Source: Bacillota bacterium
GTDB lineage: Bacteria; Bacillota; Bacilli; Alicyclobacillales; SLC66
Direction: 5' to 3'
Assembly (NCBI GenBank): GCA_021821025.1
Contig: JAKACY010000002.1
Span: 1-36,872, forward strand
DNA length: 36,872 nucleotides
Part shown: positions 9,781-26,108 of the stretch, piece after piece
How the letters are laid out: each line of letters begins with the position of its first letter
Numbering within the stretch: position 1 is the stretch's first letter
The notes under the pieces: model-generated
Database searches by the model: none
What the model was told of the DNA's origin: nothing
The model's input: the letters and a program-made list of their open reading frames with translations, nothing else
Position numbers and translations under genes: made by a program

Positions 9781-11454
9781 TCAACCTTTCTTGTTGAGGC
9801 CCTCTAGGAACTTGATGTCCTTTTCGCTTTTCGTGAATGAACTAGTGTTAAACGGCTTACCCATGTATTGCTGGGTGGTTTGCAGGTACTGCTGCAGTCC
9901 AAGACCATTGAGTCCTTGGATGTAGGTGTTCCAGTCCTTGCTAAGAGACTTGGTGCCGGCGATAAACTGGTCCATCCACTGGTTTACGTAGTTGTCGATA
10001 TTCGTCTGGTACATAGCATACTGCTGGACTTGGTCGGACGGAATCCATGCAAATCCAGGGTACACCAGTTTCGGTTGATGCCCGGTGTTATTCATCTCAG
10101 TTTCCAACTGGAGCATGGATTCTGATCCTTCACCGGTGTTCGGCGGATACGCGACGTAACCGTTTCTCCACTTGAAAGATTGGTACATCGGGCCGAGCTG
10201 ATTCCAGCCCCAGTTCTGTTGGGAACTTCCATTGTAGAATTCATTAAAGTTGGTGTTGAATATCGCCTGAGTACCCATGAGCCCTTTCTGGCCCTTTTTG
10301 GCGTATGTCCAATATTTTCCTTCGGGTCCAAAGTCCATCATCTGTGTCCCCAGCGGCGTATAAAGGAAGTTGATGAGCTTCATCACGGCAATCTGTTGCG
10401 CCGGCGTTGATGTATTCGTCAACGCGAAGGTGGCGCCAGAAGGTGGCAGTCCGTAAAAGGGAGAGTAATTAATGCCCTTCGGCCCTTTCAGCGGAGCCAT
10501 GGATACCCAGTCATTGAAGTGACTTTGTGGTGTACCGTAATTGTTGATGACGCACTGTTTACATCCGTAAGGGAAAACGCCGACCTTTCCGCTGTTCACT
10601 TGTGCTTGCAATTGCGTGTTGTTCTGCGTCATTGCAGTTTTATCCATCAGACCATTGGCGTACAGGGTATGCAGGTACTCCAAACCTTGCTTCCAACCGG
10701 ATTGCGCGGGTGCGAAAGCCAACTTGCCCTTAGGGTTGATGAAAAAGTAATCCGAGTTGGAGCCGTTTTCGTCATCGTACACGAAGGAGTTCATCAGAAA
10801 GGTGGTGGGATTCGAATGCCATCCACCGCCAGGACCGACGGTCGCGCCAACTAGTGGATCGATGCCATGTTTCTTAAAGACTTCCAGCACATTTTCAAAC
10901 TGACCGGTTGTTGTCGGCATGGACAGATGGAATTTTTTTAAAAGTTTTACGTTGATCCACATCTTTGCGGACCAGTCGCAATGCCAGCACCAGTTGTACG
11001 CAGGCAAGCCGTAGATGTCCCCGTTTGGCGCGGTGACGCCCTGTTTAAATCCGGGAACGGTGTTGATGGCTTTCCAGGCGTTTGGCGCGTATTTCTTCAG
11101 GAGATTGTTCAGGGGGAGGAAAATTCCCTCTGTGCCGTACTGAAGCTCTTGCACCGGCGTGAAGCTTCCGCCCCAGAAGACAGGGGGGTATTTGCCGCTC
11201 TCTAAAAGAAGAGATTCCTTGGTCTGTTCGTCGCTAGCCGGTGCTTCCACCCAGGTGATATTCATGTTGAATTTCTTCTCGACGTACTTTGTGAACCAGT
11301 TGGTATTCATATTGATGATCTGCGTACTCGGTGAGGCGAACATCGACACCTGCACGGGGGATGCAGCCTCAGCGGCGGGAATTGAAAGAGGCGCAGTAAG
11401 CCCCAACATCGCCATCGCAGAGGCGATAAACCCGAACTTTTTCCATAATTTCAT
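9781..11454 (-). CDS. Large family-1 extracellular solute-binding protein (LplA-like) of a carbohydrate ABC importer
   Basis: 557 aa. Signal peptide MKLWKKFGFIASAMAMLGLTAPLSIPAAEA|AS with no lipobox Cys. Size and sequence style match LplA-type oligosaccharide binders. It is the last gene after two permease genes. Confidence 0.85.
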   Translation of the reverse strand: MKLWKKFGFIASAMAMLGLTAPLSIPAAEAASPVQVSMFASPSTQIINMNTNWFTKYVEKKFNMNITWVEAPASDEQTKESLLLESGKYPPVFWGGSFTPVQELQYGTEGIFLPLNNLLKKYAPNAWKAINTVPGFKQGVTAPNGDIYGLPAYNWCWHCDWSAKMWINVKLLKKFHLSMPTTTGQFENVLEVFKKHGIDPLVGATVGPGGGWHSNPTTFLMNSFVYDDENGSNSDYFFINPKGKLAFAPAQSGWKQGLEYLHTLYANGLMDKTAMTQNNTQLQAQVNSGKVGVFPYGCKQCVINNYGTPQSHFNDWVSMAPLKGPKGINYSPFYGLPPSGATFALTNTSTPAQQIAVMKLINFLYTPLGTQMMDFGPEGKYWTYAKKGQKGLMGTQAIFNTNFNEFYNGSSQQNWGWNQLGPMYQSFKWRNGYVAYPPNTGEGSESMLQLETEMNNTGHQPKLVYPGFAWIPSDQVQQYAMYQTNIDNYVNQWMDQFIAGTKSLSKDWNTYIQGLNGLGLQQYLQTTQQYMGKPFNTSSFTKSEKDIKFLEGLNKKG

Positions 11455-11569
11455 AGAATCACAGCCTCCTCACTTGACCTTCTGGATATGGCATACGTTG
11501 GTATGCCCCTGTCTGCTTTGAATCTGTTTTGAATCTGTTTTCTGTGCATGTAGGACCTGCTGCGGTTGC

Positions 11570-12517
11570 TCAGTCTTTCAAAGATCCAATCATCACCCCT
11601 TTGACGAAGTATCGTTGGGCCAGCGGATATAAAGCGACCATCGGAATGCTGCCGATGACGATGAGTGAGTATTTAAGGAGGGTTGCAACGTTTTGGTAGT
11701 AGATCAACTCTTGTGGAGATAGGGTGCTCATGAAACCAAACCCTCCCATGCTAACATTGTTAAACTCGAGAATCGAACGCAACACCATGATGAGTGGATA
11801 CAGTGAAGTTGAATTCAGGAAGATAAGTGCTGGAAAGTATGAGTTCCAGTCTGTGACCATGGTTAGCAGCGCAATGACGGCGATGATAGGCTTTGAAATG
11901 GGGATGACGATACGCATGAAGAATCCGAAATCACTCGCACCGTCAATCTCGGCAGCCTCGCGCAGTGCCTGCGGCACACTGGCTTGGAAAAACGTCTTCG
12001 CCAGGATGATTAGAAACACGTTTAATGCAAAGGGTACAATCTGTGACCATATGGTGTTGAGCATGCCGAGGTCTTGGACGACGATGTAAAATGGGATAAG
12101 CCCCCCGTTGAACATCAAGGCAAACAGTAAGAGCCAGACGAAAATCTTGCGACCCACGAGGTCTCGGACGGACAGAGGATAGGCCATTAGCAAGGTCAGG
12201 ATGACTGTTAACAGCGTGCCGCCTACTGAGTAGATAATAGAGTGCCAGAGCCCCGGTAATACCGTGTTGTAGCGAAAGACGGCAGAGTACCCATCGAGCG
12301 TAAAGTGGACCGGCCATAACCAGACCTTCCCGTCGATGACAGCCGCACCGGAACTTAGGGATGAGCTGATAATGTAGATCATCGGGTAGACAACTGCAAT
12401 GCCTATAGCGGTCAAGGAGCTATAGATAAGGATGAGAAATAGTCGGTCGCCCGTTGATTCCCGAACATGATTTCTATGCTCAGACGATTTTGTGAATTGG
12501 GTGCTTGGCAGTGACAT
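11570..12517 (-). CDS. Carbohydrate ABC transporter permease (LplC-like)
   Basis: 315 aa, multi-TM. The EAA-type loop reads ALREAAEIDGASDFGFFMRIVIP. Confidence 0.9.
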   Translation of the reverse strand: MSLPSTQFTKSSEHRNHVRESTGDRLFLILIYSSLTAIGIAVVYPMIYIISSSLSSGAAVIDGKVWLWPVHFTLDGYSAVFRYNTVLPGLWHSIIYSVGGTLLTVILTLLMAYPLSVRDLVGRKIFVWLLLFALMFNGGLIPFYIVVQDLGMLNTIWSQIVPFALNVFLIILAKTFFQASVPQALREAAEIDGASDFGFFMRIVIPISKPIIAVIALLTMVTDWNSYFPALIFLNSTSLYPLIMVLRSILEFNNVSMGGFGFMSTLSPQELIYYQNVATLLKYSLIVIGSIPMVALYPLAQRYFVKGVMIGSLKD

Positions 12518-12553
12518 CCAGTTTCCCCCCGTGCTCGATAAGATTATGTAGAC

Positions 12554-13528
12554 TTAGAACAGGCTGGTATCGGACACATATCGAGCAACGATATTGGCGA
12601 TGACCAATAGAATGAATCCGATGACGGAGTTGAATAGACCGACTGCGGTTGCAAACGAGAAGTTCGCGTCGACCAATCCTACCTGGTAGGTGTAGGTCGA
12701 GATGACCTGAGATGTGCTCATGTTCAGTGGGTTCTGCATGAGAAAGACCTCCTCCAAGGATGCGGCGTTCAACAGTCCACCAATTGCAAGAATCACGAGG
12801 ACGATGACGGTAGGTTTGATACCTTGCCAATCAATGTTTAGAATCCTCTGAAATCTCGAAGCGCCATCAATGCGCGCGGCGTCGTATAGTTCTGGATTTA
12901 CGTTAGATAAGGCTGCCAAGTAGATTACGGCTCCATATCCAGTTGTTTGCCAGACGCCAGACCAGACGTATAAAGATGAGAATGCGCCGGGGCTGGACAT
13001 CCAATCAGGGACGTTGCTCACGCCAAACAGGTGGAACAAGCCTGCAAGCGGGCTTGCGCTAGGCGCGAGCAAAATCTGCATCATTCCCACCAGGACCACG
13101 GCGGAAACAAAGTAGGGAATATAGGTAATGGTCTGGATTGTCTTTTTGAACCACAAGTGCTTGACTTCATTAAGCGCGATGGCGAGAACGATGGAAGCGA
13201 TGGTGCCGATGATGAGAGAGTAAACTCCGATGGTCAGTGTGTTATCGAGAGTCGGCCAAAAGTAGGGGGACTGGAGCCAGAACTGCATCTCCTGCATGCC
13301 TATCCACGGGCTGTGCCAGATTCCTCCAACGGGATTGTACATACGAAAGGCAATCTGAATTCCAAGCATCGGCCAATAGTTGAAAATAGCCAAAAAAGCA
13401 AGCGGAAGACTGATCATCGCGTACAGTTGCCAGTGTCGGATGATTCGCTTTGCCAGACTCTTTCTTCTGATACCGGCACCGATAGACACTTCGTTGGATG
13501 CGTTGACAGCGTTGATTGGGATCCCCAT
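12554..13528 (-). CDS. Carbohydrate ABC transporter permease (LplB-like)
   Basis: 324 aa with RBS AAGGGGAGGG. The N-terminus RHWQLYAMISLPLAFLAIFNYWPMLG and the loop YDAARIDGASRFQRILNI are typical of LplB/YteP permeases. No ATPase gene is present, as is usual for CUT1 systems that use a shared MsmX-type ATPase. Confidence 0.9.
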   Translation of the reverse strand: MGIPINAVNASNEVSIGAGIRRKSLAKRIIRHWQLYAMISLPLAFLAIFNYWPMLGIQIAFRMYNPVGGIWHSPWIGMQEMQFWLQSPYFWPTLDNTLTIGVYSLIIGTIASIVLAIALNEVKHLWFKKTIQTITYIPYFVSAVVLVGMMQILLAPSASPLAGLFHLFGVSNVPDWMSSPGAFSSLYVWSGVWQTTGYGAVIYLAALSNVNPELYDAARIDGASRFQRILNIDWQGIKPTVIVLVILAIGGLLNAASLEEVFLMQNPLNMSTSQVISTYTYQVGLVDANFSFATAVGLFNSVIGFILLVIANIVARYVSDTSLF

Positions 13529-13809
13529 ATAAACCCTCCCCTTATGTGTAACTTTAACCAGAGTCTTTTATTCAATTTTACATGTCACCCAACTACGTAC
13601 TCGCACCTCGAATTCAGTATGGAGTTTTCTGCAAGATTTAAAGAGATTTAAACTGCGGTCAGTTCTTTTAATATCGTGCTGCTGACTTTCAGGTAGTGCC
13701 AGAGGGTAGATCCCGTTATCGTGAAGTGATAGGTCAGATTATCACGGAGTAGGTCATGATGCGTGAGTCGATGATGGGTTAAATTGTAAAATAGGCTGGT
13801 CACCGAGAA

Positions 13810-13871
13810 AATCATACATGATTTATTGTTGTAACTGCCGACATTCTATTACGAATTTTCCGACTTGTCAA
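13810..13871 (-). promoter_or_regulatory. Minus-strand promoter TTGACA-17-TAGAAT with downstream operator AATCATGTATGATT (plus coordinates 13810..13823), upstream of the ABC importer operon
   Basis: The reverse complement reads ggTTGACAagtcggaaaattcgtaaTAGAATgtcggcagttacaacaataAATCATGTATGATT. The -35 box is at 13866-13871 and the -10 box at 13843-13848. The same 12-mer core occurs at 13932 and 20421. Confidence 0.5.
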
Positions 13872-13900
13872 CCATCAAGAGCGGTTTCTTGACTCTGGAA

Positions 13901-13943
13901 TTGACTATTCATAATAATATTAATAGACTAAATCATGTATGAT
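13901..13943 (+). promoter_or_regulatory. Plus-strand promoter TTGACT-17-TAGACT with abutting operator ATCATGTATGAT (13932..13943)
   Basis: TTGACT at 13901-13906, a 17-nt AT-rich spacer, TAGACT at 13924-13929, 2 nt, then ATCATGTATGAT. The architecture and spacing are the same as at 20390..20439. Confidence 0.55.
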
Positions 13944-14035
13944 GTATAATATTTGTGGTGTTCGATAAGTTTGCTAAGTCGATCTCAGAGGAGTCGCATG
14001 AAGCAACCGCTCGGAGGCAGACAGGGGGAATATCG

Positions 14036-14436
14036 GTGAAAATCATCAACGTGGAAGCGTATACACTTCAGGAGCCAGTTGCACCACCGTTTGTTTGGAG
14101 ACGGGGGCTTCCTGGGTCGGGAACGATGAATGAGCTGATCTCGTTCGCACGAGTACTGGGTTAAAAGGCGGAATTACGGGTGCGCTTAGAATTGCACATC
14201 TAGCAGATTCATTTGGTATGAAAGCGGAAATACACGGGGGTGGCTTACCTAACCTTCACCTTGCGTGCGCAATCCCTAACAATTCCTATTATGAAATCCT
14301 GGTCTTTGGGGAACCTGCACAATTCGCCCACAATATAGGGCCAGATAGCTGCATTTTTGTGCCTAATGATCCAGGTATCGGATATCAATTCGATTGGGAG
14401 GAATTGAAACAAAAAGCAGTTCTGAAGATTGAATAA
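14036..14436 (+). pseudogene. Enolase-superfamily (mandelate racemase/muconate lactonizing enzyme-like) dehydratase with a large internal deletion
   Basis: GTG 14036 (RBS GGGGGA) opens VKIINVEAYTLQEPVAPPFVWRRGLPGSGT, a typical capping-domain N-terminus. From about 14134, in a different frame, the sequence reads ADLVRTSTGLKGGITGALRIAHLADSFGMKAEIHGGG...PNNSYYEIL...PGIGYQFDWEEL, a typical barrel C-terminus. The roughly 250 codons carrying the KxK/D/E/E catalytic residues are absent. Confidence 0.65.
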
Positions 14437-14691
14437 GACCATCCGGGATCGGTCCGGGCAGTATTGAATCGGAACTCATCATGTTCAGGTAGATCGAACA
14501 ATGGTTGGGAGAAATACCGCAACTCACGATTCAGAATATTCATCAGCTTGTGTATGATAGTAAAGGATCGTAGCATGGTAGGATGGTATTTTGGCCAGTG
14601 AGGAGTCCGGTTACGGGGAATTAGTGGGTCCTTTTGAAAAGTAAAGTACGAGAAGCTTTAAATTCCTTAAGACACGGTGGGGTGGATCAGA

Positions 14692-15528
14692 ATGGACCGG
14701 ATTGACGCGCACCAACACTACTGGAAGTTGGATCGTGGAGACTACGCCTGGTTGACTCCGGAGTATGGTCCCTTGTACCGGGACTTTCTTCCGCAGGACC
14801 TTCGTCCCTATTTAGACAGTTGTGGTATTTCAAAGACAATTGTTGTACAGGCTGCGCCGACCGTGGAAGAAACAGAGTTCTTACTCAAACTTGCTGACAA
14901 CCACCCTTCCATTGCCGGTGTTGTCGGTTGGTTGAATTTGGAGTCCGATGATTTTCCTGCAAAATTGCAACGCATGTCTCGGCATCCAAAGTTTGTAGGC
15001 ATTCGGCCCATGCTTCAGGATCTGCCGCAAGACGATTGGATCCTGAGACGGCAAGTAGTGGACAATGTCGCGATTATAGTGGAGCAAGAAATTCCGATGG
15101 ACATCCTGGTTTTCCCACGCCACCTACCGTACATTTCTCGCCTCTTACAAATGTTCCCCAAGCTGCATGGGGTCATTGACCATTTAGCCAAGCCGCCGAT
15201 CCATGCGCGGGTTTTGGAACCTTGGCGTTCCCTCATCGCTGAAATTGCAGAGTATCCATCTGTCATGTGCAAACTTTCCGGGATGGTGACAGAAGCAGAT
15301 CATGAAAACTGGAAGCCATCTGACCTACGTCCATACGTTGAACATGTCCTAAGCGTCTTCGGACCGGATCGAGTGATGTTCGGCAGTGACTGGCCAGTGT
15401 GTACAGCGGTTGCCGATTATGAGACGGTTTACCAGACTCTTCAGGATCTGCTACCGAAGGACTTATCTCATGAGAAATGGGATCTTATCTTTGGTGGAAA
15501 TGCCGCAAGATTTTACGGAATCGAGTGA
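14692..15528 (+). CDS. Amidohydrolase_2 (COG3618) family; candidate L-fucono-/L-galactono-1,5-lactonase
   Basis: ATG 14692 follows GGTGGGGTGGA. The N-terminus MDRIDAHQHYW, then VIDHLAKPPI, CKLSGMVTEA and MFGSDWPVC, match the COG3618 sugar-lactonase pattern. Confidence 0.8.
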   Translation: MDRIDAHQHYWKLDRGDYAWLTPEYGPLYRDFLPQDLRPYLDSCGISKTIVVQAAPTVEETEFLLKLADNHPSIAGVVGWLNLESDDFPAKLQRMSRHPKFVGIRPMLQDLPQDDWILRRQVVDNVAIIVEQEIPMDILVFPRHLPYISRLLQMFPKLHGVIDHLAKPPIHARVLEPWRSLIAEIAEYPSVMCKLSGMVTEADHENWKPSDLRPYVEHVLSVFGPDRVMFGSDWPVCTAVADYETVYQTLQDLLPKDLSHEKWDLIFGGNAARFYGIE

Positions 15529-15570
15529 GCACTCGTTCGTTCTCATATTTCGAAAGGGGCGTGAAATGAA

Positions 15571-16827
15571 TTGCCCAAAGACTGTAAACAACCGTGGTGG
15601 CAAGAAGCGAAATACGGAATGTTCATTCACTGGGGACTGTATGCTCAGTTAGCCGGAGAATGGAAGGGAATTCGGACACCCCATATCGGGGAATGGATCA
15701 TGAAGCATCTGGGCATCCCCGTCGATGAATATGAACAGGTGGCTCGACAGTTCAATCCGATCGATTTCGACGCATATCAATGGGTACGTTTGGCGAAAGA
15801 AGCTGGTATGAAGTACATCGTGATCACTGCGAAACACCATGACGGTTTCGCCATGTTTCATTCAACATGCTCGCCCTATAATATCGTGGATGCAACGCCT
15901 TTTAAAAGGGATCCCATCGCAGAATTGGCGCAAGCTTGTCAAGATGCGGGTATCAAGTTGTGTTTTTACTACTCCCAGGCTCAGGACTGGCATGACCCGA
16001 ATGGATATGGCTATGGGCCGATTCCAGATGAAAACAAAGACTTTTCAAAGTATCTCGAAGAAAAGTGCAAACCTCAACTTAGGGAACTGCTCACCCAATA
16101 CGGGGATGTTGGCCTCATTTGGTTTGACACGCCGCTGATTATGTCGGAGCAACATAGCAGGGAATTGGCGCAGTATGTCAAAAGTATACAGCCCAACTGC
16201 CTGGTCAGCGGTCGGATCGGCAATCAGATTGGAGACTATATGTCCACCGGAGACAATATGATTCCAGCTTTGCCGTACTATGGGGACTGGGAGGTTCCGG
16301 CGACGCTGAATGATACCTGGGGTTATAAATCATTCGACACCAACTGGAAATCTCCTAAAGACATCCTTCAGTTATTGGTCAAGATCAATAGTCGCGGCGG
16401 GAATTATTTATTAAACGTTGGCCCGGATGCGCGCGGAATTATTCCAGAAGCCAGTGCTCAGATTTTGCGGGAGGTTGGTCAATGGCTCGCTCGAAATGGC
16501 GCAAGCATTTACGGCACACAACCGGTTCCTGTTTTTCCGTACGAGTTGCCTTGGGGAACCTTCACCTACAAGCCAGGGAAATTGTATTTGCACGTCTTTG
16601 ACTGGCAAAAAGACATTCATATTCACGGCCTAGCCAATGATATGACAAAGGCTTATTGGCTTTCCACCGGGGCAGCGGTTCCCGTTGAACGTCGTTATAT
16701 TCCTTCACTCAAGCAACATCGAACTACCTTCCATCTTGGATCGACACCACAGGATTCGCTGGATTCTGTCATTTGTCTAGAGTTATATGGTGATCGCCTG
16801 ATGTTTGATTCACTGGATACCTTGTAA
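15571..16827 (+). CDS. GH29 alpha-L-fucosidase (paralog 1), no signal peptide
   Basis: TTG start; an in-frame TGA lies 9 nt upstream. Motifs: YGMFIHWGLY, TAKHHDGFAMF, GLIWFDTP (nucleophile Asp context) and GGNYLLNVGPDARG. Confidence 0.9.
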   Translation: MPKDCKQPWWQEAKYGMFIHWGLYAQLAGEWKGIRTPHIGEWIMKHLGIPVDEYEQVARQFNPIDFDAYQWVRLAKEAGMKYIVITAKHHDGFAMFHSTCSPYNIVDATPFKRDPIAELAQACQDAGIKLCFYYSQAQDWHDPNGYGYGPIPDENKDFSKYLEEKCKPQLRELLTQYGDVGLIWFDTPLIMSEQHSRELAQYVKSIQPNCLVSGRIGNQIGDYMSTGDNMIPALPYYGDWEVPATLNDTWGYKSFDTNWKSPKDILQLLVKINSRGGNYLLNVGPDARGIIPEASAQILREVGQWLARNGASIYGTQPVPVFPYELPWGTFTYKPGKLYLHVFDWQKDIHIHGLANDMTKAYWLSTGAAVPVERRYIPSLKQHRTTFHLGSTPQDSLDSVICLELYGDRLMFDSLDTL

Positions 16828-16901: not shown

Positions 16902-17867
16902 ATGTCTAAATCTTTTGCCTCTCATCGTCCACTCGGTAGTACTGGACTAGTGGTCACGTCGCTCTGCGTTGGCGGTGCTCCATTGGGTGATATGCCAGAA
17001 ACCTTTGCCTACAGTGCACCAGAAGAGAATGCGCTAGCCACCATTCGTGCCGCCTTTGCAAGTCCCATCAACTTTCTCGATACTGCGGCCGCATATGGAG
17101 ATGGAGAAAGCGAGCGTCGAATTGGCAAGGTGATTCGCGAGATGGGCGGACTCCCAGCGGGCTTTGTATTAGCCACCAAAGCTGATCGCCATTTGCAAAC
17201 AGGAGACTTTAGTGGCGAACAAATCAAGCGTTCCATCGAAGGAAGTCTTCAGCGATTGGGACTTGACCGCTTGCAATATGTATATATCCACGATCCAGAA
17301 CACACCACTTTCGAAAATGTCATGGGATCGTGCGGACCGCTTGAAGTGTTGAAGAACTTTAAGGAGCAAGGAGTTATTGATCACATTGGTATATCCGGCG
17401 GTCCCATCGACATGCTGATTCGCTATGTACAAACAGGAGAGTTCAGCGCTGTGGAGACCCATAATCGCTACACCCTGCTCAACCGATCCGCGGAGCCTTT
17501 ACTGGATGTTGCCAATCAACTACATGTTGCGGTCATCAATGCGGCGCCCTACGGGAGCGGCATCTTAGCGAAAGGGCCAGATGCCTACGCTCGTTATGCA
17601 TACGATGATGCGCCCCCGGCGTTGCTTGAACGCGCTCGAGGGCTTGCAAGGGTCTGCCAGGAATACAATGTGCCGCTGGCAGCTGTGGCACTTCAATTCT
17701 CTCTAAGGGATCCCCGGATTACGAGCACTGTCGTTGGCATGACAAAGCCGGAACGCATCAGCCAGACTATGGAACTTGCCAGTTATCCCATTCCCGCGGA
17801 TATTTGGCCAAAACTAGATGCCATTGGGTTTGATACGGACAATCCCGAGGCCAATAGATTTAGATGA
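16902..17867 (+). CDS. Aldo/keto reductase; candidate L-fucose (D-threo-aldose) 1-dehydrogenase
   Basis: 321 aa with an AKR fold pattern (LDTAAAYGDGESERRIG, ATKADR, IHDPE, GISGG). The functional guess rests on the operon context and on the known AKR-type L-fucose dehydrogenase of Pseudomonas. Confidence 0.75.
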   Translation: MSKSFASHRPLGSTGLVVTSLCVGGAPLGDMPETFAYSAPEENALATIRAAFASPINFLDTAAAYGDGESERRIGKVIREMGGLPAGFVLATKADRHLQTGDFSGEQIKRSIEGSLQRLGLDRLQYVYIHDPEHTTFENVMGSCGPLEVLKNFKEQGVIDHIGISGGPIDMLIRYVQTGEFSAVETHNRYTLLNRSAEPLLDVANQLHVAVINAAPYGSGILAKGPDAYARYAYDDAPPALLERARGLARVCQEYNVPLAAVALQFSLRDPRITSTVVGMTKPERISQTMELASYPIPADIWPKLDAIGFDTDNPEANRFR

Positions 17868-18334: not shown

Positions 18335-18343
18335 CCACGTTGG

Positions 18344-18628
18344 ATGAAGAATCTCCCACACGAAGAGGCGCGGAGTCAATTGAACTACATGTCGGATATC
18401 ATTCAGTGGGTTGCAGGTATCCGACCGCGCTTTTTCAGGCCTCTATATGGCGCTTTGAACGACGAAACGATTCGGATGGTCATGTGCTTGGGTTATAAGA
18501 TTCTGTTTTGGGATGTCGACAGTTTGGATTGGGCTGGAATGACCGCTACACAAGTGTCAAACAATGTATTGTCTCATACCGGGCCCGGCTCCGGGTATGC
18601 GGCCAAAACAGTTCTACCTAGCGCCTGA
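18344..18628 (+). pseudogene. Fragment of a CE4 (NodB-type) polysaccharide deacetylase
   Basis: RPRFFRPLYGALNDETIRMVMCLGYKILFWDVDSLDW matches the central FRPPYG...W.vDs.DW block of NodB domains. The N-terminal TFDDG/HxxxH metal site and the C-terminal LHD block are missing. No RBS is evident. Confidence 0.55.
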
Positions 18629-18647
18629 TCAACTTTTTTTCTAGAAG

Positions 18648-20183
18648 TTAGCGTAAGCCAAGCCGAAGTAACTGCTCTTCCGGTGCCCCGAGTTCCTTAA
18701 GCGTATTTTTGAGTCGCAACTGGAGTTCGGCCACCTTGTCGGGGTGGGACCGTGATAGGTTGATAAGTTCGTTCGGATCATTTTCTTTATCGCTAAGCCA
18801 CGTCTCAGTTTCCCATGAAACGCAATGATGGACCTGACGCCGGCCTGGGCGATAGGAGTGAACGGTCAGTGACTCGTCAGATGGCTCGCTCTCATACGGC
18901 CCTAACTCATAGGGGAGAAAGCGAGCCATGTGATGTCCATACCAGTAAAGCGGTTGGTTATCCTGGCAAGGCGATTGGTGAAGGATCCAGCGACCGTCAG
19001 TTAATGTGACGCTTTTTCCAAACTGTCCGGCTATGGCATACGATCGAATCGAGGTGTTAGGATCCAGCAGGACGGGATGGAGGTCTATTCCATGCCGTCC
19101 GGGTGGGCACGGTTTGTTCAGGGCACTGAGGACGGTCGGATATATGTCTACGAGTTGCACCAACTGACTTCGGCGTGTTCCAGCCTTTGCATCCGGGTGT
19201 GCCACAATAAAGGGGATATGTCCTACCGCGTCGTGTTCGTGTGTCTGCAGCTTTCCCAGTCTGCCGTGGTCCCCGTTATAAGTACCATGATCAGAAGTAA
19301 AAATAACCATCGTGTTGCGCCATAGGTTTAGTTCGTCCATCTTGTCGAGGAGTTTTCCCAACCACTTATCCACTAGCATCACGTGAGCGGCATAGCGGGC
19401 TTGGTAGTGACGTAGTTCATCGAAGGACATGTGGTTTCGCCAATGGTCGTAGGGGGCCATCGAACGCCAATGAGGTATATTGTAGCCGCGCGGGTCGAAT
19501 CGTTTAACCAGTTTCTCAGGCGCGTCCCAAGGTTCGTGCGGATCAAAACAGTCTACGTGAAGGTAGAACCCCTCATATGTGTGGTTATGTTCCAGCCAAT
19601 CTGCCGCCTTCGTAAAAACCTGAGCTGAAAAAGTATCCTTTTCATCGTGGTGCGTAAGGTGGACATTGCGAAAATGACGTTCTGTTTTATGAAAGGGTGG
19701 GTCTGGGTTAGGAAATGTGACAGGGTTAGTTTTCCAAGCGTCCGCCTCGTGCCCGCGAATAAACTCAAATCCGGAGTAACCCATATGGTAGTTACCTGAT
19801 CCTTGCTCCCACAAGTGAAAATGATCTGTGACGAGATAACTAATCGAAAAGCCTTCCGCTTGTACCTTTGCAAGCGACTGATTGGGTGGGCCCGAAACTT
19901 GACGAGGCAGATCCAGGTCTTCGTCCTCTAAAGGTCCCCAGCCGCGTTCGAGAAACTCATAGCGTCCTGTATAGATATCTCTACGAGCTGGCATACACGG
20001 GGTTGATCCGCACCATGCATGATCAAATACCACTCCGCGGGCAGCAAGCCGATCCATGTTCGGCGTCGGAACAGTCCATTCTGCCTGCTCCGGGCCTGTT
20101 ACCTGAGAGAGTGGCAGGCCATGATGATAAGGGCCACAATGATCCCTGCGTAGAGTATCACATAAGATAACGATGCAATTCAT
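18648..20183 (-). CDS. Cys-type (formylglycine-dependent) sulfatase, no signal peptide
   Basis: 511 aa. N-terminal metal-site context IVILCDTLRRDH. The CxPxR motif TPCMPARRDIYTGRY is encoded at 19983..19997 (reverse complement tgt atg cca gct cgt). A later block reads FTSDHG. Confidence 0.85.
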   Translation of the reverse strand: MNCIVILCDTLRRDHCGPYHHGLPLSQVTGPEQAEWTVPTPNMDRLAARGVVFDHAWCGSTPCMPARRDIYTGRYEFLERGWGPLEDEDLDLPRQVSGPPNQSLAKVQAEGFSISYLVTDHFHLWEQGSGNYHMGYSGFEFIRGHEADAWKTNPVTFPNPDPPFHKTERHFRNVHLTHHDEKDTFSAQVFTKAADWLEHNHTYEGFYLHVDCFDPHEPWDAPEKLVKRFDPRGYNIPHWRSMAPYDHWRNHMSFDELRHYQARYAAHVMLVDKWLGKLLDKMDELNLWRNTMVIFTSDHGTYNGDHGRLGKLQTHEHDAVGHIPFIVAHPDAKAGTRRSQLVQLVDIYPTVLSALNKPCPPGRHGIDLHPVLLDPNTSIRSYAIAGQFGKSVTLTDGRWILHQSPCQDNQPLYWYGHHMARFLPYELGPYESEPSDESLTVHSYRPGRRQVHHCVSWETETWLSDKENDPNELINLSRSHPDKVAELQLRLKNTLKELGAPEEQLLRLGLR

Positions 20184-20389
20184 CTATCCATCACCACTCA
20201 GTCCTTTGAAGTAGATGTTCCAGTTTTGTGTCAATCATGGCAGACGATTCGCCCATGGGGCCGGCTAATCGGAAGACTTCGGGTGTTGTGCCACCTCTAG
20301 AATCGTTGAGTGCATAAGACAGAAAAAGAAGGTCTGGTTCGCAATTATATGACTGTCAATCGATGATAGCGATTTTCCGGTTAGGGTAA

Positions 20390-20439
20390 TTGACTTATCT
20401 GAATATTATGCTTAGACTGAATCATGTATGATACATGAT
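20390..20439 (+). promoter_or_regulatory. Promoter TTGACT-17-TAGACT with the 19-bp perfect palindrome operator ATCATGTAT-G-ATACATGAT (20421..20439)
   Basis: TTGACT at 20390-20395, a 17-nt spacer, TAGACT at 20413-20418, 2 nt, then the palindrome. The layout matches 13901..13943. Confidence 0.6.
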
Positions 20440-20550
20440 GTTTGCAGCATTTTATCGAGCGTCTTTAACGCTTTGATCTACACTGTCATCATGTAGTTTC
20501 GCTGGTGATCATGTGATTTTTAGATAAGGTTGAGAAAGTGAGGAGTTGCC

Positions 20551-21648
20551 GTGAAGATCACGAAGGTGGAAAGCTTCGTCCTGCACGTACCACTCAATCC
20601 CCCGATTACCGATGCCATTAATTCACCTACGCATTGGGGGTTGCCTGGAGTACGGATATTTACGGACGAGGGTATCGTGGGATACGGCTATACCGGAACT
20701 TGCGCGTTAGGTGATGAGATGATCGCGGACACAATTGATCGGTACTACGCCCCCGCACTATTGCAGCGCGATCCATTTCTGGTCCGGGATATCTGGCAGA
20801 GTCTGCGTTATGGTGACTTGCACTGGGTAGGTAGGGCGGGCATCACGCAGATGGCGTTGGCCGCGGTGGATATCGCGCTGTGGGACATCATGGCTAAAGC
20901 CGCGGGAGAGCCATTGTGGCGGTATTTGGGCGGGCATAAGACAGACGGAATAAAGGCATACAACACGAATGGCGGATGGTTAAACTGGACGACTGACCGC
21001 CTGCTGCAGGATATAACCACCTTCGTTGATGAGGGTTTTACGGGCGTGAAGATGAAGGTGGGCAAACCGGACCCGAAAGAAGATTACGAACGGGTCAAGG
21101 CGGTGCGCCAAGCCATCGGAGACGACGTAGACCTGATGTTGGATGTCAATCAGGGCTGGAACATTACTACGGCGATGCGATGGGGTAAAAAGCTCGAAGA
21201 TTTTGACCCGCTATGGTTGGAAGAACCTCTGAACCCGGATGATACGATTGGCCATAAGAAATTGGCTGATGAACTCAACACGGCCATCGCGCTCGGGGAG
21301 CACCTATACACGAAGTACGCTTTTCGAGATTACATCCATCAAGGTGCGGTGGAGTACGTGCAGGTCGATGCGACCCGGGTCGGCGGTATCACAGAATGGT
21401 TGGAAGTCGCCGGGCTTGCGGCGGCGTATGACCTGCCCATCGTCCCACACGTTGGTGACATGGGCCAAATACACCAGCACTTGGTTGCAGCGACGAGAAA
21501 TGCGCCGATGCTGGAGTATATTCCGTGGATTCGGCATATCTTTGTTGAGCCGGTACAAGTGGAGAAAGGTCGTTACAGGTTGCCTGAATTGCCGGGAGCT
21601 GCGACGGAGGTCTCTCCGGAGGCGTTTGAAAGGTACCGCGTTCGCTAA
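20551..21648 (+). CDS. Enolase-superfamily, MR-subgroup acid-sugar dehydratase; candidate L-fuconate/L-galactonate dehydratase
   Basis: GTG start 5 nt after GAGGAG. Motifs: KxK (GVKMKVG), metal ligands in LMLDVNQGW, WLEEP and ALGEH, and the Asp/His dyad in VQVDATRVGGITE and IVPHVG. Specificity is inferred from context only. Confidence 0.8.
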   Translation: MKITKVESFVLHVPLNPPITDAINSPTHWGLPGVRIFTDEGIVGYGYTGTCALGDEMIADTIDRYYAPALLQRDPFLVRDIWQSLRYGDLHWVGRAGITQMALAAVDIALWDIMAKAAGEPLWRYLGGHKTDGIKAYNTNGGWLNWTTDRLLQDITTFVDEGFTGVKMKVGKPDPKEDYERVKAVRQAIGDDVDLMLDVNQGWNITTAMRWGKKLEDFDPLWLEEPLNPDDTIGHKKLADELNTAIALGEHLYTKYAFRDYIHQGAVEYVQVDATRVGGITEWLEVAGLAAAYDLPIVPHVGDMGQIHQHLVAATRNAPMLEYIPWIRHIFVEPVQVEKGRYRLPELPGAATEVSPEAFERYRVR

Positions 21649-21773: not shown

Positions 21774-23024
21774 ATGGCAGCCATACATCCAGGTGCCCAG
21801 TGGTTTCCGGACGCAAAGCTGGGTATGTTCATTCATTGGGGCCCGTATTCACTAAGAGGGATTGAGGCTTCGTGGCCGCTTCAGCCGCACAGCCATCAGT
21901 ATATCGCGACTGAGGAGTACGAGGCGTTGGCCCTGGACTTTTGCCCTGAACACTACGATCCTGTTAAATGGGCTCGCATGGCTAAAGAGGCGGGAGCCAA
22001 GTACGTCGTGCTGACGGCAAAGCACCACGATGGCTACTGTCTGTTTGATACCAAGACCACCGACTACTGTGCGCCGAAAACAGGGCCTGGCGTTGATCTC
22101 ATCACTCCGTATGTGGAGGCCGTACGCGCTGCTGGGCTCAAGGTCGGATTCTACTTCACCACGATTGATTGGCACGATCCTGATTTTGCTACTATTCCTA
22201 TCAAGTCCTACATCCAGTCTCCTAAACCATTTGTTTATGATCCGCAGCGCTGGTACAGTTTTCACCAACGTTTTATGACCCAACTCACGGAGTTATTGAC
22301 GAACTACGGGCAAATTGACCTGATCTGGTTTGACGTGCCAGGGTTCGGTGCGGATCGCTGGCGCAGCTATGAAGTCAAGCAGATGATGCTCAATCTACAG
22401 CCACACATCGTCATCAACGATCGGCTTCCTGAAGTGGGAGACTACGCAACACCGGAGCAGTTTATCCCACACCATCCACCGAAAGGCTGGTGGGAGACCT
22501 GCATGACCATGAACCATCAATGGGCGTATCACCCAGACGGGTCTACTTACAAGGATGTCCGCACCTTGATTCGAACCCTTACGGAGGTGGTGCACAAAGG
22601 GGGAAACCTGCTTTTGAACGTCGGACCGAAGCCGGACGGAACCTTTCCTCAGGAGGCTGTACAGCGCCTTGAGAGCATCGGCCAGTGGATGGGACATTCG
22701 GGATCCAGTCTGTACGGAACACGCCCTGCGCCTGAAGGTGCTTCAGAGTGTTTCTATGGGCCGCTGACAACTAAGGATAACACAGTGTTCCTGCACGTGT
22801 TGGACATTCCGCAAGGGCCTGTCGAACTGCGAGGCGTTGCTGGCGAGGTCGTGAGCGTTACACTGATGTCGACAGGGGATCCGCTATCATACCGAGTACA
22901 TAACGCACCACACTTCTGGGACTCTAGCGAGCAGCGACTTGAAGTGGATTTGTCCCGTGAGCAGTGCGATCCGTACAATACCGTCATCGCGGTTGAGTTT
23001 GCGCAACCCCCTTTGTGGCCGTAG
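21774..23024 (+). CDS. GH29 alpha-L-fucosidase (paralog 2), no signal peptide
   Basis: RBS GAGGAGGGG. Motifs: LGMFIHWGPY, TAKHHDGYCLF, DLIWFDVPG and GGNLLLNVGPKPDG. Confidence 0.9.
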   Translation: MAAIHPGAQWFPDAKLGMFIHWGPYSLRGIEASWPLQPHSHQYIATEEYEALALDFCPEHYDPVKWARMAKEAGAKYVVLTAKHHDGYCLFDTKTTDYCAPKTGPGVDLITPYVEAVRAAGLKVGFYFTTIDWHDPDFATIPIKSYIQSPKPFVYDPQRWYSFHQRFMTQLTELLTNYGQIDLIWFDVPGFGADRWRSYEVKQMMLNLQPHIVINDRLPEVGDYATPEQFIPHHPPKGWWETCMTMNHQWAYHPDGSTYKDVRTLIRTLTEVVHKGGNLLLNVGPKPDGTFPQEAVQRLESIGQWMGHSGSSLYGTRPAPEGASECFYGPLTTKDNTVFLHVLDIPQGPVELRGVAGEVVSVTLMSTGDPLSYRVHNAPHFWDSSEQRLEVDLSREQCDPYNTVIAVEFAQPPLWP

Positions 23025-23053
23025 ATTTTGGGTGATAGGGAGGACGGTGCTCG

Positions 23054-23344: not shown

Positions 23345-23417
23345 AGGCTGCGTGGTTCGTGGTGTCCGATGAATCTATGGAATTAGCGGATTTGATATAC
23401 CCGAAGGAGTGTGGAGA

Positions 23418-24719
23418 ATGGCAAAACTGCTGAGTAAGACAGAGTATGAGCAAAACGTGGCTGAGAGTCGCGATCGGCGGATGGCTTGGTGGCGAGAAGC
23501 CCGCTTTGGGATGTTCGTGCACTTTGGACTATACGCGCTCATTGGTAGAAACGAATGGGCGATGTCCTTGGAGAATTACCCAATTGCTGAGTATGAGAAG
23601 TTGGCCCAACAATTCAATCCAAAGCCTGGTGCGCCGAGGGAATGGGCGAAGCTAGCTAAGGCGGCAGGGATGAAGTACATGGTATTGACCACGCGGCATC
23701 ATGATGGCTTCAGCCTGTGGGATTCCAAGGTGAATCCGTACAATAGCGTGAACATCGGGCCGAAGCGGGACATCGTGCGCGAGTTCGTCGATGCTTGTCG
23801 GGAGTTCGACCTGCGCATTGGCTTTTACTCTTCGTTGATGGACTGGCACCATCCGGACGGTGGTCGTGCCGCGTATGATCGCGAGGCTCGCGCTCGCTTC
23901 ACAGCTTATGTGAAGGGGTTGAATCGCGAGCTCATGACGCAGTACGGAAAGATCGATGTACTATGGTACGACGTTGCTCTGCCCATGGAGACGTGGGAAG
24001 GTTGGGATTCGCTGACGATGAATCAGATGGTGCGCGAACTGCAACCGGATATCATTCTCAACAACCGCAGCAGACTGGACGAGGATTTCGGAACACCTGA
24101 GGAACACCTGACCGCGATGGACAGGGACTGGGAAGCGTGCATGACATTCAACGGCATCAGTTGGGGATATGTGGATTCTAAACAGGCGATGCCGTACAGC
24201 TATAATGCACAGCGCATCATCCGCATGCTAAATACCGTCACGGCAGGAGGAGGAAACCTACTTCTTAATATTGGCCCGGCGCCGGATGGATCTGTACCGC
24301 AGGAGGCCCAGGTACCGCTGGAAACGGTAGGGAGGTGGCTTGCGAGAAACGGGCAGGCGGCCTACGGGGTCAAGCAAAGAACGGAGTTTAGTAGGGCAAG
24401 TGGGGTATGCGGTAGTTCCCGCGAAGGCAACCGTGTATATCTGTGGAACTGGGTGTGGCCACGTGAGGGGCAGATGGCCCTCGGAGGGTTCGTAACACCC
24501 GTGAAGACTATTCGACTGGTGGAGGATGGTAAGCCGATTGAATTTGAACAACGCGGCCACCGCATTATTTTGAAAAACCTGCCCGCATCGTCGCCGGATG
24601 AAATTGCGGGTATCGCAGTTTTGGAACTGGAGTTTGAGGAACCTCCTGTGTTTCACTTCGCCAGTTACTTTCCGCAGCTGCACGGTGGTTTCGATTACGC
24701 AGAAAACGGGAAATTGTAG
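23418..24719 (+). CDS. GH29 alpha-L-fucosidase (paralog 3), no signal peptide
   Basis: ATG 23418 lies 8 nt after GAAGGAG. Motifs: RFGMFVHFGLY, TTRHHDGFSLW, DVLWYDVAL and GGNLLLNIGPAPDG. Confidence 0.9.
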   Translation: MAKLLSKTEYEQNVAESRDRRMAWWREARFGMFVHFGLYALIGRNEWAMSLENYPIAEYEKLAQQFNPKPGAPREWAKLAKAAGMKYMVLTTRHHDGFSLWDSKVNPYNSVNIGPKRDIVREFVDACREFDLRIGFYSSLMDWHHPDGGRAAYDREARARFTAYVKGLNRELMTQYGKIDVLWYDVALPMETWEGWDSLTMNQMVRELQPDIILNNRSRLDEDFGTPEEHLTAMDRDWEACMTFNGISWGYVDSKQAMPYSYNAQRIIRMLNTVTAGGGNLLLNIGPAPDGSVPQEAQVPLETVGRWLARNGQAAYGVKQRTEFSRASGVCGSSREGNRVYLWNWVWPREGQMALGGFVTPVKTIRLVEDGKPIEFEQRGHRIILKNLPASSPDEIAGIAVLELEFEEPPVFHFASYFPQLHGGFDYAENGKL

Positions 24720-24761
24720 GGAAAGCAGGATTGCGAGGGTTCAGCACAAACTTAGGAGGTT

Positions 24762-26108
24762 ATGGAGATGGCTTACTATGGGTGGCCGGATAAGTACGGG
24801 AATCCGGACTGGTTAGTAAACGCTCGCTTTGGACTATTCATCCACTGGGGACTATACGCTGCCGCAGCGCGCCACGAGTGGGTGATGAATCGGGAGAAAA
24901 TCAATTCTGAGAAGTATCGCAAGTACTTTGAGCATTTCGACCCGGATCTATACGATCCGACAGTTTGGGCGGACGCGGCTAAGGACGCAGGCATGAAGTA
25001 CTTCGTCATCACGACGAAGCATCATGAGGGCTTCTCCCTCTGGGACTCACAGTTGACCGATTATAAGGCAACGAATACGCCTGCCGGACGCGACTTGCTT
25101 CGTCCGATGTTAGATGCATTTCGTAGTAGAGGATTGAAGGTAGGCATGTATCATTCCCTCATCGACTGGCATCATCCGGACTTCCCGATCGACGGCTTGC
25201 ATCCGATGCGCGACGACGAGGCATTCCGAGAGCAGGAGAAAGATCGGAAAATGGAGCGCTACGTCGAATATCTGCACGGACAAGTGAGGGAATTGCTGAC
25301 GAACTACGGGAAGATAGACTACCTGTGGTTTGACTTCTCGTATTCCAAGATGGATTGGGGCTGGTCGAAAGGAAAGGGTGCTCTGGACTGGCAGTCTGAG
25401 GCCTTGGAACGGCTGGTCTTGGAACTGCAACCCGATATCCTGTTAAATGATAGGCTTGAACTGGGTCGCGGCGTTGTCACCCCGGAGCAGTACCAACCTC
25501 GGCAGGCCATCACGCAGGGCGGGCAACCAGTTATCTGGGAGGCTTGCCAGACGTTAAATGGGAGTTGGGGATACGACCGAGACAACCACGATTACAAGTC
25601 CGTCGAGATGCTGGTCAAGATGCTGATCGACAGCGTATCAAAAGGGGGCAACTTGCTGCTCAACGTCGGCCCCACAGGGCGCGGAGAGTTTGATGAGCGA
25701 GCATTGTCGAGCTTGCAGGGAATTGGAAAATGGATGCGCCAGCATTCACGATCGATTTACGGAGCAGGTAGTAGCGAATTTGACGCACCAGTAGATTGTC
25801 GTTATACACAACGAGGCGATCGGCTGTACTTGCATATCTACTCTTGGCCCTACCGTCACATTCACTTAAGCGGATTGGCTGGACGCATCAGTTACGCCCA
25901 GCTATTGCACGATGCTTCGGAAGTCAAGTATGTCGAGCACACGGGCCGTCAATCCGAATCGCCTATCGACGTCGCCGAGACAGACGGTACAGTCACTTTA
26001 GAGTTGCCAGTTCAACAACCAAATGTGGTAGTCCCTGTGGTCGAGTTGTTCTTGAACCACGGGAAGTATCCCGAAGGCGTGCGTAGAGTTCGACACGTGT
26101 CAGGGTGA
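24762..26108 (+). CDS. GH29 alpha-L-fucosidase (paralog 4), no signal peptide
   Basis: AGGAGG upstream; the start is ATG 24762 or, with better spacing, ATG 24768. Motifs: RFGLFIHWGLY, TTKHHEGFSLW, DYLWFDFSY and GGNLLLNVGPTGRG. Confidence 0.9.
   Translation: MEMAYYGWPDKYGNPDWLVNARFGLFIHWGLYAAAARHEWVMNREKINSEKYRKYFEHFDPDLYDPTVWADAAKDAGMKYFVITTKHHEGFSLWDSQLTDYKATNTPAGRDLLRPMLDAFRSRGLKVGMYHSLIDWHHPDFPIDGLHPMRDDEAFREQEKDRKMERYVEYLHGQVRELLTNYGKIDYLWFDFSYSKMDWGWSKGKGALDWQSEALERLVLELQPDILLNDRLELGRGVVTPEQYQPRQAITQGGQPVIWEACQTLNGSWGYDRDNHDYKSVEMLVKMLIDSVSKGGNLLLNVGPTGRGEFDERALSSLQGIGKWMRQHSRSIYGAGSSEFDAPVDCRYTQRGDRLYLHIYSWPYRHIHLSGLAGRISYAQLLHDASEVKYVEHTGRQSESPIDVAETDGTVTLELPVQQPNVVVPVVELFLNHGKYPEGVRRVRHVSG

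Follow-up and report, generated by a model that had tools for sequence, protein, structure and literature searches.

A Candidate Gram-Positive-Type Utilisation Locus for α-L-Fucosylated Oligosaccharides with a Leaderless Sulfatase in an Acid-Mine-Drainage Bacillota

Introduction

Can a bacterium of Gram-positive type, living in mine drainage, take up fucose-containing oligosaccharides whole, possibly in sulfated form, and dismantle them in its cytoplasm? The question is raised by a stretch of 36,872 nt (contig JAKACY010000002.1 of assembly GCA_021821025.1, positions 1 to 36,872; the window, in what follows), which comes from a mine-drainage metagenome and belongs to an acid-mine-drainage Bacillota, kin to Alicyclobacillus and Paenibacillus. 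In this window, genes for α-L-fucosidase-type enzymes, an ATP-binding cassette (ABC) importer, candidate enzymes of fucose catabolism and a sulfatase without signal peptide lie together. Few glycans are as recalcitrant as sulfated polymers that contain fucose, and the known degraders of these, marine Bacteroidota and the Planctomycetota-Verrucomicrobiota group, employ secreted or periplasmic sulfatases. The LplABC systems of Paenibacillus and the fucosyllactose clusters of Bifidobacterium are polysaccharide utilisation loci (PULs) based on ABC import, with intracellular glycosidases.

An earlier annotation of the window, made from its letters and open reading frames (ORFs) and called here the sequence-only reading, had proposed that fucosylated and possibly sulfated oligosaccharides are imported and taken apart inside the cell. 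We followed up this proposal by means of profile and structure-database matches, inspection of N-termini and promoters, and comparison of gene neighbourhoods. The answer that we favour, and that we hold to be rather probable, is that the window is a Gram-positive-type PUL for α-L-fucosylated oligosaccharides, in which the sulfatase most likely performs a cytoplasmic desulfation. The part concerning import and hydrolysis of fucosides is well supported, and is ordinary for this bacterial group.

Results and Discussion

Fucosidase-Type Genes

All five ORFs that the sequence-only reading had named as intact GH29 genes, starting at 15571, 21774, 23418, 24762 and 34267, are placed by Pfam in PF01120 (Alpha_L_fucos), with scores of 277–299 bits and a cutoff of 25.2 bits. 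They lie on the forward strand, encode leaderless proteins and are designated here GH29_1 (15571–16827; 287 bits), GH29_2 (21774–23024; 299 bits), GH29_3 (23418–24719, within a long ORF from 23409; 277 bits), GH29_4 (24762–26108; 293 bits) and the divergent GH29_5 (34267–35694, within a long ORF from 34102; 292 bits, plus PF16757, Fucosidase_C). The motif blocks quoted for them are present, although with small departures from the strings given: alignment shows HHDGF in GH29_1 and GH29_3, HHDGY in GH29_2, HHEGF in GH29_4 and HHDNF in GH29_5; the block of the nucleophile Asp, W(F/Y)D, reads IWFD in GH29_1 and GH29_2, LWYD in GH29_3, LWFD in GH29_4 and LYSD in GH29_5; the third block is GGNYLLNV in GH29_1, GGNLLLNV/I in GH29_2–4 and NGNLLLNI in GH29_5.

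GH29_1–4, 32–37% identical to each other, appear to be of the GH29-A type of α-L-fucosidase and contain its acid/base block WE(V/T/A). Taking TmFuc, BT_2970, AlfC, 6GN6 and FUCA1 as references for GH29-A, and AfcB and BT_2192 for GH29-B, the closest solved relatives of all five enzymes are on the GH29-A side, AfcB being matched by GH29_3 only (1e-22). The best PDB matches of GH29_1 are 9RZX/9RZY (1e-104), followed by AlfC (2e-84); for the three entries 9RZX, 9RZY and 9S0X we found no literature. GH29_2, GH29_3 and GH29_4 all match best 6GN6, the iso1 enzyme of Paenibacillus thiaminolyticus (5.5e-88, 1.4e-73 and 2.9e-121, respectively, thus spanning E 1e-73 to 3e-121), with moderate identities.

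GH29_5 is only 21–25% identical to the other four and has WQ where they have WE. Its closest solved relative is the exo-α-L-galactosidase BpGH29 of the Bacteroides plebeius porphyran locus (7LJJ; 1e-88), with which it has the string DIER in common. This agrees with the statement, in the sequence-only reading, that GH29 also holds α-L-galactosidases. The Asp of its WQTDT string aligns with Asp327 of BpGH29, reported as the ligand of the L-galactose O6 (PMC9774334), and the residue aligned with Trp335 (7LJJ/7LK7) is conserved as well. Since the Asp327 equivalent is retained, α-L-galactosidase activity is possible, and GH29_5 may be an α-L-galactosidase. The long ORF from 34102 begins with a 55-residue C-terminal remnant of an Amidohydro_2 protein (34102–34266), fused in frame to GH29_5 and 48% identical to the C-terminus of the intact lactonase described below; hence 34267 is the sensible start, and the remnant implies that a lactonase-GH29 gene pair was once present twice.

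A further gene on the forward strand (31201–33225), listed before as GHL6, encodes a leaderless protein with a GHL6 and a GH42 trimerisation domain. It matches end to end the GH151 α-L-fucosidase ALfuk2 of P. thiaminolyticus (6TVK; E 3.5e-94, residues 25–674 of 674) and has the three-domain architecture of GH151; identity is moderate. As this protein is a full-length homologue of a solved α-L-fucosidase, the fucosidase-type genes number six. Downstream of GH29_5, a RhaM-family mutarotase (35736–36089, forward strand; PF05336) has a 71% orthologue between the GH29 genes of the closest relative found, L085. Labels such as L001, L005 or L085 denote the contigs and neighbourhoods fetched for comparison; L085 is from a relative of about 85% identity, and L086 is from Alicyclobacillus fastidiosus.

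Importer and Secretion

The importer is encoded on the reverse strand by a solute-binding protein (SBP) of the LplA ('aldouronate') type (9781–11454) and two ABC permeases (11570–12517 and 12554–13528; PF00528), which have 7 and 4 transmembrane-like segments, respectively, and are 85% identical to those of L085. The SBP was assigned by homology: it is without a Pfam match of its own, and its homologues are named aldouronate-transport SBPs and carry SBP_bac_1/8, the best named matches being from Alicyclobacillus (55–56%). No ABC ATPase gene was found within the window.

Secretion was judged from the hydropathy and charge of all N-termini. Only two binding proteins show a basic n-region with a hydrophobic h-region behind it, namely the LplA-type SBP and the product of 2147–4195, an orphan SBP_bac_5 protein of 682 residues with no adjacent permeases. 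The N-termini of the GH29s, the sulfatase and the GHL6 protein start directly in the catalytic domains, in agreement with the lack of signal peptides noted before. It had also been stated that the binding proteins are the only exported components; in fact, only these two look secreted, but the permeases and a one-segment protein (33287–34045, forward strand; 252 residues, one predicted transmembrane segment, no Pfam family, encoded after the GH151 gene and before the amidohydrolase remnant) belong to the membrane or exported components too. Both binding proteins carry a Sec-type signal peptide from which the lipobox cysteine is absent. Binding proteins of monoderm Bacillota are normally lipid-anchored, and a missing lipobox cysteine is unusual there.

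Fucose Catabolism, Operator Motif and Regulator

Interleaved with the fucosidase-type genes, and likewise on the forward strand, are four genes which look like the first four steps, i.e., the upper half, of the non-phosphorylative L-fucose route, as judged from their families. They encode a cog3618-type sugar lactonase of the Amidohydrolase_2 family, candidate L-fucono-1,5-lactonase (14677–15528; PF04909, 180 bits); an aldo-keto reductase (AKR), candidate L-fucose 1-dehydrogenase (16902–17867; PF00248); a FucU-type L-fucose mutarotase (17900–18334; PF05025, 150 bits); and an acid-sugar dehydratase of the mandelate racemase subgroup of the enolase superfamily, candidate L-fuconate dehydratase (20551–21648; MR_MLE_N/C). 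The AKR gene adjoins FucU also in L086. The best PDB match of the dehydratase is 3TJ4/4H19 (2.5e-109); its identification as a FucD orthologue was rejected, FucD matching the C-terminal domain only (1e-53, compared with 2.5e-109 for 3TJ4).

A generic scan for promoters and terminators was at the shuffle background (28 found vs. 22 expected, and 16 vs. 17, respectively), and promoter sites were used only where they coincide with a repeated 57-nt block. This block is duplicated with 77% identity at 13899–13955 and 20388–20444. The first copy belongs to the divergent promoter region 13811–13955 and is a copy of the dehydratase promoter; the second, between the sulfatase and the dehydratase operon, contains the promoter-like hexamers TTGACT-17-TAGACT and, behind them, ATCATGTATGATACATGAT, a perfect palindrome of 19 bp (20421–20439). 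The window has three exact copies of the 12-mer ATCATGTATGAT, two in the divergent region (13811–13822, reverse strand; 13932–13943, forward strand) and one as part of the palindrome (20421–20432, forward strand), with a chance expectation for such exact repeats of about 0.004. All three copies lie beside promoter-like hexamers, those of the importer, of the lactonase-GH29_1-AKR-FucU operon and of the dehydratase-GH29_2-3-4 operon. A 16/19 variant of the palindrome is found in the equivalent intergenic region of L085 (about 7648–7668). The regulator acting through this operator-like motif is probably the GntR/FCD-family protein, a candidate repressor (8742–9419, reverse strand; Pfam GntR and FCD), which has a 64% orthologue in L085.

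Transporter, regulator and glycosidases are co-located, with an operator-like 12-mer at three promoters. The earlier proposal of import followed by intracellular degradation of fucosylated oligosaccharides is supported by the ABC importer, the six leaderless fucosidase-type enzymes, the interleaved fucose-catabolic genes and the operator-like motif common to three promoters.

Related Loci

The sequence-only reading had expected so many GH29 genes beside a sulfatase to be unusual for a Firmicute ABC-importer locus. The related loci contradict this expectation, as orthologous importers adjoin GH29 genes in A. fastidiosus, in Paenibacillus humicola and in the ~85%-identical relative. In L085 the binding protein is 84% identical, the dehydratase 86%, GH29_2 80% and GH29_4 86%, and RhaM and GntR genes are present too. 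The importer locus of A. fastidiosus has two GH29 genes, an AKR and two FucU genes, with a GH29_4 orthologue at 67%; that of P. humicola has GH29 genes and GH42, with a GH29_5 orthologue at 54%. Moreover, at least five species of Paenibacillus/Cohnella have an orthologue of the sulfatase within an ABC-importer operon, beside a GH151-like gene. No sulfatase was found in the importer loci of L085, A. fastidiosus and P. humicola.

Compared with L085, the window has the lactonase, GH29_1, the AKR, FucU, a fragment of a CE4 gene and the sulfatase lying between the importer and the dehydratase-GH29 operon. Since L085 joins importer and dehydratase-GH29 operon without a sulfatase, the latter is a recent and lineage-specific neighbour. 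Its position in the window is supported by a second independent contig (L001) with the same gene order, and the read depth across both sulfatase junctions is even, at about 6×.

The Sulfatase and Its Orthologues

The ORF 18648–20183, on the reverse strand and forming a single-gene unit, encodes a leaderless Cys-type (formylglycine) S1 sulfatase (PF00884, 116 bits), as already recognised from its letters. It has the sulfatase fold and the C/S-x-P-x-R signature as C63-M-P-A-R67; in an alignment of 20 homologues the catalytic residues are invariant, C63, P65, R67, D9, D298, H299 and K311 being the positions compared, and C63 aligns with the formylglycine position of 9IHK. Solved sulfatases are all distant from it (E 6e-21 or weaker in the PDB), the best matches being the Rhizobium phosphonate monoester hydrolase (PMH) 2VQR (5.8e-21) and an S1_30 enzyme (1.1e-19). 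At residues ~435–450 it contains an insertion of about 14 residues, ESEPSDESLTVHSY, absent from 19/19 aligned homologues.

Its closer relatives, 53–71% identical, leaderless and of ~500 residues, are carried by Paenibacillus, Cohnella, Ktedonobacter and other Chloroflexota, Spirochaetia (Spirochaetota), Lentisphaerae (Lentisphaerota), Latescibacteria, Planctomycetota and haloarchaea. A literature search found nothing on an intracellular or cytoplasmic sulfatase with fucoidan and ABC transport, and no description of this sulfatase family or arrangement under the topics fucoidan/GH29/Paenibacillus and GH151-sulfatase. In the literature searched the family appears uncharacterised, and it is the one element of the locus that merits an experiment.

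To evaluate the genomic context, we fetched the neighbourhoods of 32 orthologues (27 first, five later) and of 56 paralogues at 30–38% identity. By scanning with hidden Markov models, a GH151-like or GH29 gene was found within 10 kb in seven of the first 27 orthologue loci and in none of the 56 paralogue loci (Fisher p = 2e-4, a value without phylogeny correction, the five Paenibacillaceae loci in the count being one evolutionary event). An eighth positive locus, from Halocatena (L091), is among the later five. The GH151-like gene is adjacent in the five Paenibacillus/Cohnella loci and in a Lentisphaerae metagenome-assembled genome (MAG); GH29 is the neighbour in Salinarchaeum and Halocatena.

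In the five Paenibacillus/Cohnella species the orthologue is the last gene of an operon comprising a histidine kinase, an AraC response regulator, two permeases and an SBP, and adjoins a protein of 675–711 residues that is homologous to 6TVK over its whole length (E 1.2e-58 in P. hemerocallicola); two of these species have a gene for the formylglycine-generating enzyme (FGE) 1.3 kb downstream. FGE genes adjoin the orthologues in L005, L006 and L082. In Salinarchaeum laminariae, a GH29, an FGE and further sulfatases are within 5 kb, and near the orthologue of Halocatena marina (L091) there are a GH29, an SBP_bac_5 protein, a second sulfatase, three GFO-type dehydrogenases and a DHDPS-type aldolase. 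The operon of L089, whose sulfatase is 70% identical, reads radical-SAM/SPASM, ROK, SBP, two permeases, sulfatase, orthologue, SDR and FucU, with no glycosidase. A bifunctional fucokinase/GDP-fucose pyrophosphorylase accompanies an MFS transporter and a second sulfatase in the Anaerolineae locus L023, and the Spirochaetia loci have homologues of the AKR and lactonase of the window. Other contexts are a Sugar_tr transporter with a second sulfatase in Ktedonobacter (L007), an FGGY kinase, an Fe-ADH and an aldolase in L092, an FAH-family hydrolase, a GH78 rhamnosidase and GH42 in Halomontanus, and, in L088, an enolase-type dehydratase overlapping the stop codon of the orthologue, with a GH20b-like gene nearby.

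Three further observations concern these neighbourhoods. The orthologues very often share an operon with a second, different S1 sulfatase of 430–570 residues (L007, L023, L082, L083, L088, L089, L091 and L092), unlike the window, which holds one sulfatase only. An α/β-hydrolase esterase of the window (4475–5638; weak AXE1 and glucuronoyl-esterase matches) is ~33% identical to esterases directly downstream of orthologues in the Anaerolineae loci L012, L013 and L083, and may be a functional partner of the sulfatase, e.g., in deacetylation. Finally, SBP_bac_5 and GFO genes flank the orthologues in Halocatena (L091) and Spirochaetia (L020), as at the left end of the window.

Proposed Route and Substrates

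From the family assignments, the missing leader sequences, the gene order, the repeated operator motif and the synteny in other genomes, we infer the following scheme for substrates, reaction order, regulation and the role of the sulfatase in the fucose pathway. The secreted LplA-type binding protein and the two permeases would import small fucosides, from which, in the cytoplasm, the four putative GH29-A paralogues, the BpGH29-like GH29_5 and the GH151 homologue would free L-fucose, possibly also L-galactose, by acting on different linkages. FucU, the AKR dehydrogenase, the cog3618 lactonase and the enolase-type dehydratase would then carry out the first four non-phosphorylative steps, and the GntR/FCD repressor would probably control the importer and both GH29 operons via the shared ATCATGTATGAT operator. 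The leaderless formylglycine sulfatase would most likely desulfate imported sulfated fucose, or the sulfated fucose at the non-reducing end of the oligosaccharide, and this would let the GH29s and the dehydrogenase act.

Taken together with its relatives, the sulfatase would be explained most economically as a cytoplasmic enzyme for a small imported sulfated 6-deoxy-L-hexose, either as the free sugar or at an oligosaccharide's non-reducing end; the orthologue neighbourhoods point most often to L-fucose, and in one case to rhamnose. The desulfated product would feed oxidative, phosphorylative or salvage routes. The sulfated substrates of the sequence-only reading are plausible: orthologues elsewhere repeatedly adjoin fucosidase or 6-deoxyhexose genes, but the sulfatase gene of the window stands by itself on the opposite strand and has no counterpart in the L085 locus.

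The marine candidates once suggested, fucoidan and porphyran, find no support in a contig from mine drainage and a sulfatase only distantly related to solved S1_15 and S1_16 enzymes; brown-algal fucoidan was set aside on the source environment, which makes it an unlikely substrate. Sulfated fucose-containing exopolymers of acidophilic microalgae or biofilms might be the likely substrates in mine drainage, although this is speculation. A sulfur-scavenging role is unlikely, because mine drainage is presumably rich in sulfate.

Weighing of the Alternatives

Several observations weigh against the reading of the window as a fucoside PUL with a desulfating enzyme, and have to be set beside it. As for the pathway, three of its members match NCBIfam models below the equivalog cutoffs: the best match of the lactonase is L-fucono-1,5-lactonase at 252 bits (cutoff 400), FucU reaches 139.4 bits with the L-fucose mutarotase model (cutoff 141), and the best match of the dehydratase is talarate/galactarate dehydratase at 281 bits (cutoff 500). 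The AKR has no NCBIfam equivalog match. The later steps (2-keto-3-deoxy-fuconate dehydrogenase, hydrolase or aldolase) were not found in the window, and neither was an FGE or anaerobic sulfatase maturase (anSME) for maturation of the sulfatase, in the whole 36.9 kb. Three metatranscriptomes of the same study gave no contigs matching the window, a result which says nothing on expression. The sulfatase shows E values of only 1e-7 to 1e-12 with the solved S1_15 and S1_16 entries, and hence no close relationship to these two fucoidan sulfatase subfamilies; S1_15/16/17/22/25 are counted as fucoidan backbone families by a preprint.

The remaining adverse points concern the place of the sulfatase, and lend themselves to a different explanation, which we regard as somewhat unlikely: the fucoside locus would be as described, and the sulfatase would be a passenger placed there by rearrangement, serving sulfated rhamnose, galactose, N-acetylhexosamine or an unrelated ester. 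In fact, the gene stands alone on the opposite strand, convergent with FucU, and is missing from the 13 kb at hand of L085, where the importer and the dehydratase-GH29 operon are immediate, divergent neighbours. It lies just outside a 9.7-kb block, from GntR to FucU, exactly bracketed by a 25-nt inverted repeat (24/25 complementary; 8595–8619 and 18336–18360), and is flanked by gene fragments, among them the CE4 one next to it. Moreover, the contexts of the orthologues are heterogeneous, including a GH78 rhamnosidase, GH42 and an FAH hydrolase (L009), GH38 and an esterase (Anaerolineae L083), the GH20b-like gene of L088 and, for a Planctomycetota MAG (L084), a neighbourhood devoid of sugar genes. 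Against this explanation, the orthologue has a fucosidase-family or FucU/Fkp neighbour in at least six lineages, and none of the 56 paralogue loci has one; moreover, the full 19-bp palindrome sits in the intergenic region common to the sulfatase and the dehydratase-GH29 operon.

A second alternative, improbable in our view, is that the locus, or at least its right-hand part, targets α-L-galactosides instead of or besides fucosides; the substrate could then be L-galactose or L-galactose-6-sulfate galactans of acidophilic algae, the oxidative pathway taking L-galactose. Acceptance of the L-galacto configuration is common among L-fucose dehydrogenases, cog3618 lactonases and fuconate dehydratases. 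This alternative gains from GH29_5, with its closeness to BpGH29 and its conserved Asp, and from the report of a narrow GH29 clade with α-L-galactosidase activity (preprint 10.64898/2026.05.19.726164). However, that Asp is a putative discriminator only, the same clade including the fucosidases 4NI3 and 9LXL, while GH29_1–4 and the GH151 homologue are closest to characterised fucosidases, FucU is present, and the sulfatase is distant from the L-galactose-6-sulfatase 7LHA (E 1.6e-15).

Finally, that the 'sulfatase' is a promiscuous phosphonate-monoester or phosphodiester hydrolase of PMH/PehA type, with no glycan role, is very improbable: PMH-type enzymes also use formylglycine, and 2VQR and PehA are the best PDB and NCBIfam matches, but the similarity is weak (106 bits vs. 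the 900-bit cutoff of PehA, mostly over residues 250–374) and the orthologues belong to operons of sugar transport and sugar oxidation, in many cases together with a second sulfatase and an FGE.

Comparison with Known Systems

With the LplABC 'aldouronate' systems of Paenibacillus and the fucosyllactose clusters of Bifidobacterium, the window has in common a secreted SBP, two permeases, a local regulator and leaderless exo-glycosidases; it differs in its six fucosidase-type genes, in an oxidative rather than phosphorylative fucose route and in the added cytoplasmic sulfatase. The mutarotase, dehydrogenase, lactonase and dehydratase functions of the non-phosphorylative pathway (Xanthomonas FucD; the Burkholderia cog3618 L-fucono-1,5-lactonase) are all represented, but with a dehydratase that is no FucD orthologue and an AKR as dehydrogenase, and the enzymes acting on 2-keto-3-deoxy-fuconate are lacking from the window.

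The fucoidan loci of marine Bacteroidota, Verrucomicrobiota and Planctomycetota (GH29/95/107/141/168 with S1_15/16/17/22/25) are alike in having GH29 beside a formylglycine sulfatase. They rely on secreted or periplasmic enzymes, endo-fucanases and many sulfatases, whereas the non-marine window combines ABC import with one leaderless sulfatase of another lineage and no endo-fucanase. Similarly, BpGH29 is periplasmic, belongs to a SusC/D locus and acts after an S1_11 L-galactose-6-sulfatase, whereas GH29_5 is leaderless and the sulfatase of the window is unrelated to 7LHA. Alike in its logic is the ats2 cluster of Bifidobacterium breve, which reportedly combines a transporter, an intracellular sulfatase and an anaerobic maturase for N-acetylglucosamine-6-sulfate: a small sulfated sugar is imported and desulfated in a Gram-positive cytoplasm, and orthologue operons of the L089 type resemble it. 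The sugar differs from ours, and the maturation system probably does too, given the FGE beside several orthologues.

Other Features of the Window

Rearrangement has left its scars on the region. The 25-nt inverted repeat looks like the footprint of an inversion or of the insertion of a module. Its left arm abuts a C-terminal TnpB fragment (8260–8592, reverse strand; 110 residues, with only the TNB domain of a TnpB/Cas12f-like protein, PF07282, E 5.8e-11, hence a transposon-associated nuclease in truncated form), and its right arm overlaps the start of the fragment identified by Pfam as the C-terminus of a CE4 polysaccharide deacetylase (18344–18628). Within the block, 13955–14436 was considered as a remnant of the intact dehydratase gene and rejected, as blastx against the proteins of the window found no similarity; 14218–14436, with a weak MR_MLE_C match below cutoff (E 6e-4), is at best the remnant of a different enolase-family gene, and for 13955–14164 there was no Pfam or blastx support as an enolase remnant.

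On the forward strand at 26294–26476, a 60-residue ORF matches an internal piece of Druantia DruA (PF14236, E 1.4e-9). The depth of the contig at 26294–26421 is ~50×, compared with ~6× in the flanks, so this segment is repeated, either within this genome or in other parts of the community. At its left end (392–8065) the window encodes, besides the orphan SBP_bac_5 protein, UxaC (glucuronate isomerase), the esterase, a long GFO/IDH/MocA oxidoreductase and a LacI regulator.

Conclusions

Among Bacillota of the Alicyclobacillus and Paenibacillus type it is common for a locus to join several GH29 genes to an ABC importer, and the window adds to such loci a concrete candidate for a cytoplasmic fucose-sulfate sulfatase, conserved across several phyla. 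Should the sulfatase not have this role, what remains is simply another Gram-positive cluster for the use of fucosides. Extending the role to the whole leaderless family, as a dedicated cytoplasmic sulfatase for sulfated L-fucose or, more broadly, for sulfated 6-deoxy-L-hexoses, is a tentative suggestion that we consider doubtful. If true, it would point to a widespread route of importing first and desulfating later, feeding oxidative and salvage pathways, unlike the secreted or periplasmic desulfation of marine bacteria, and it would account for the use of sulfated, fucose-containing exopolymers by microbes outside the sea.

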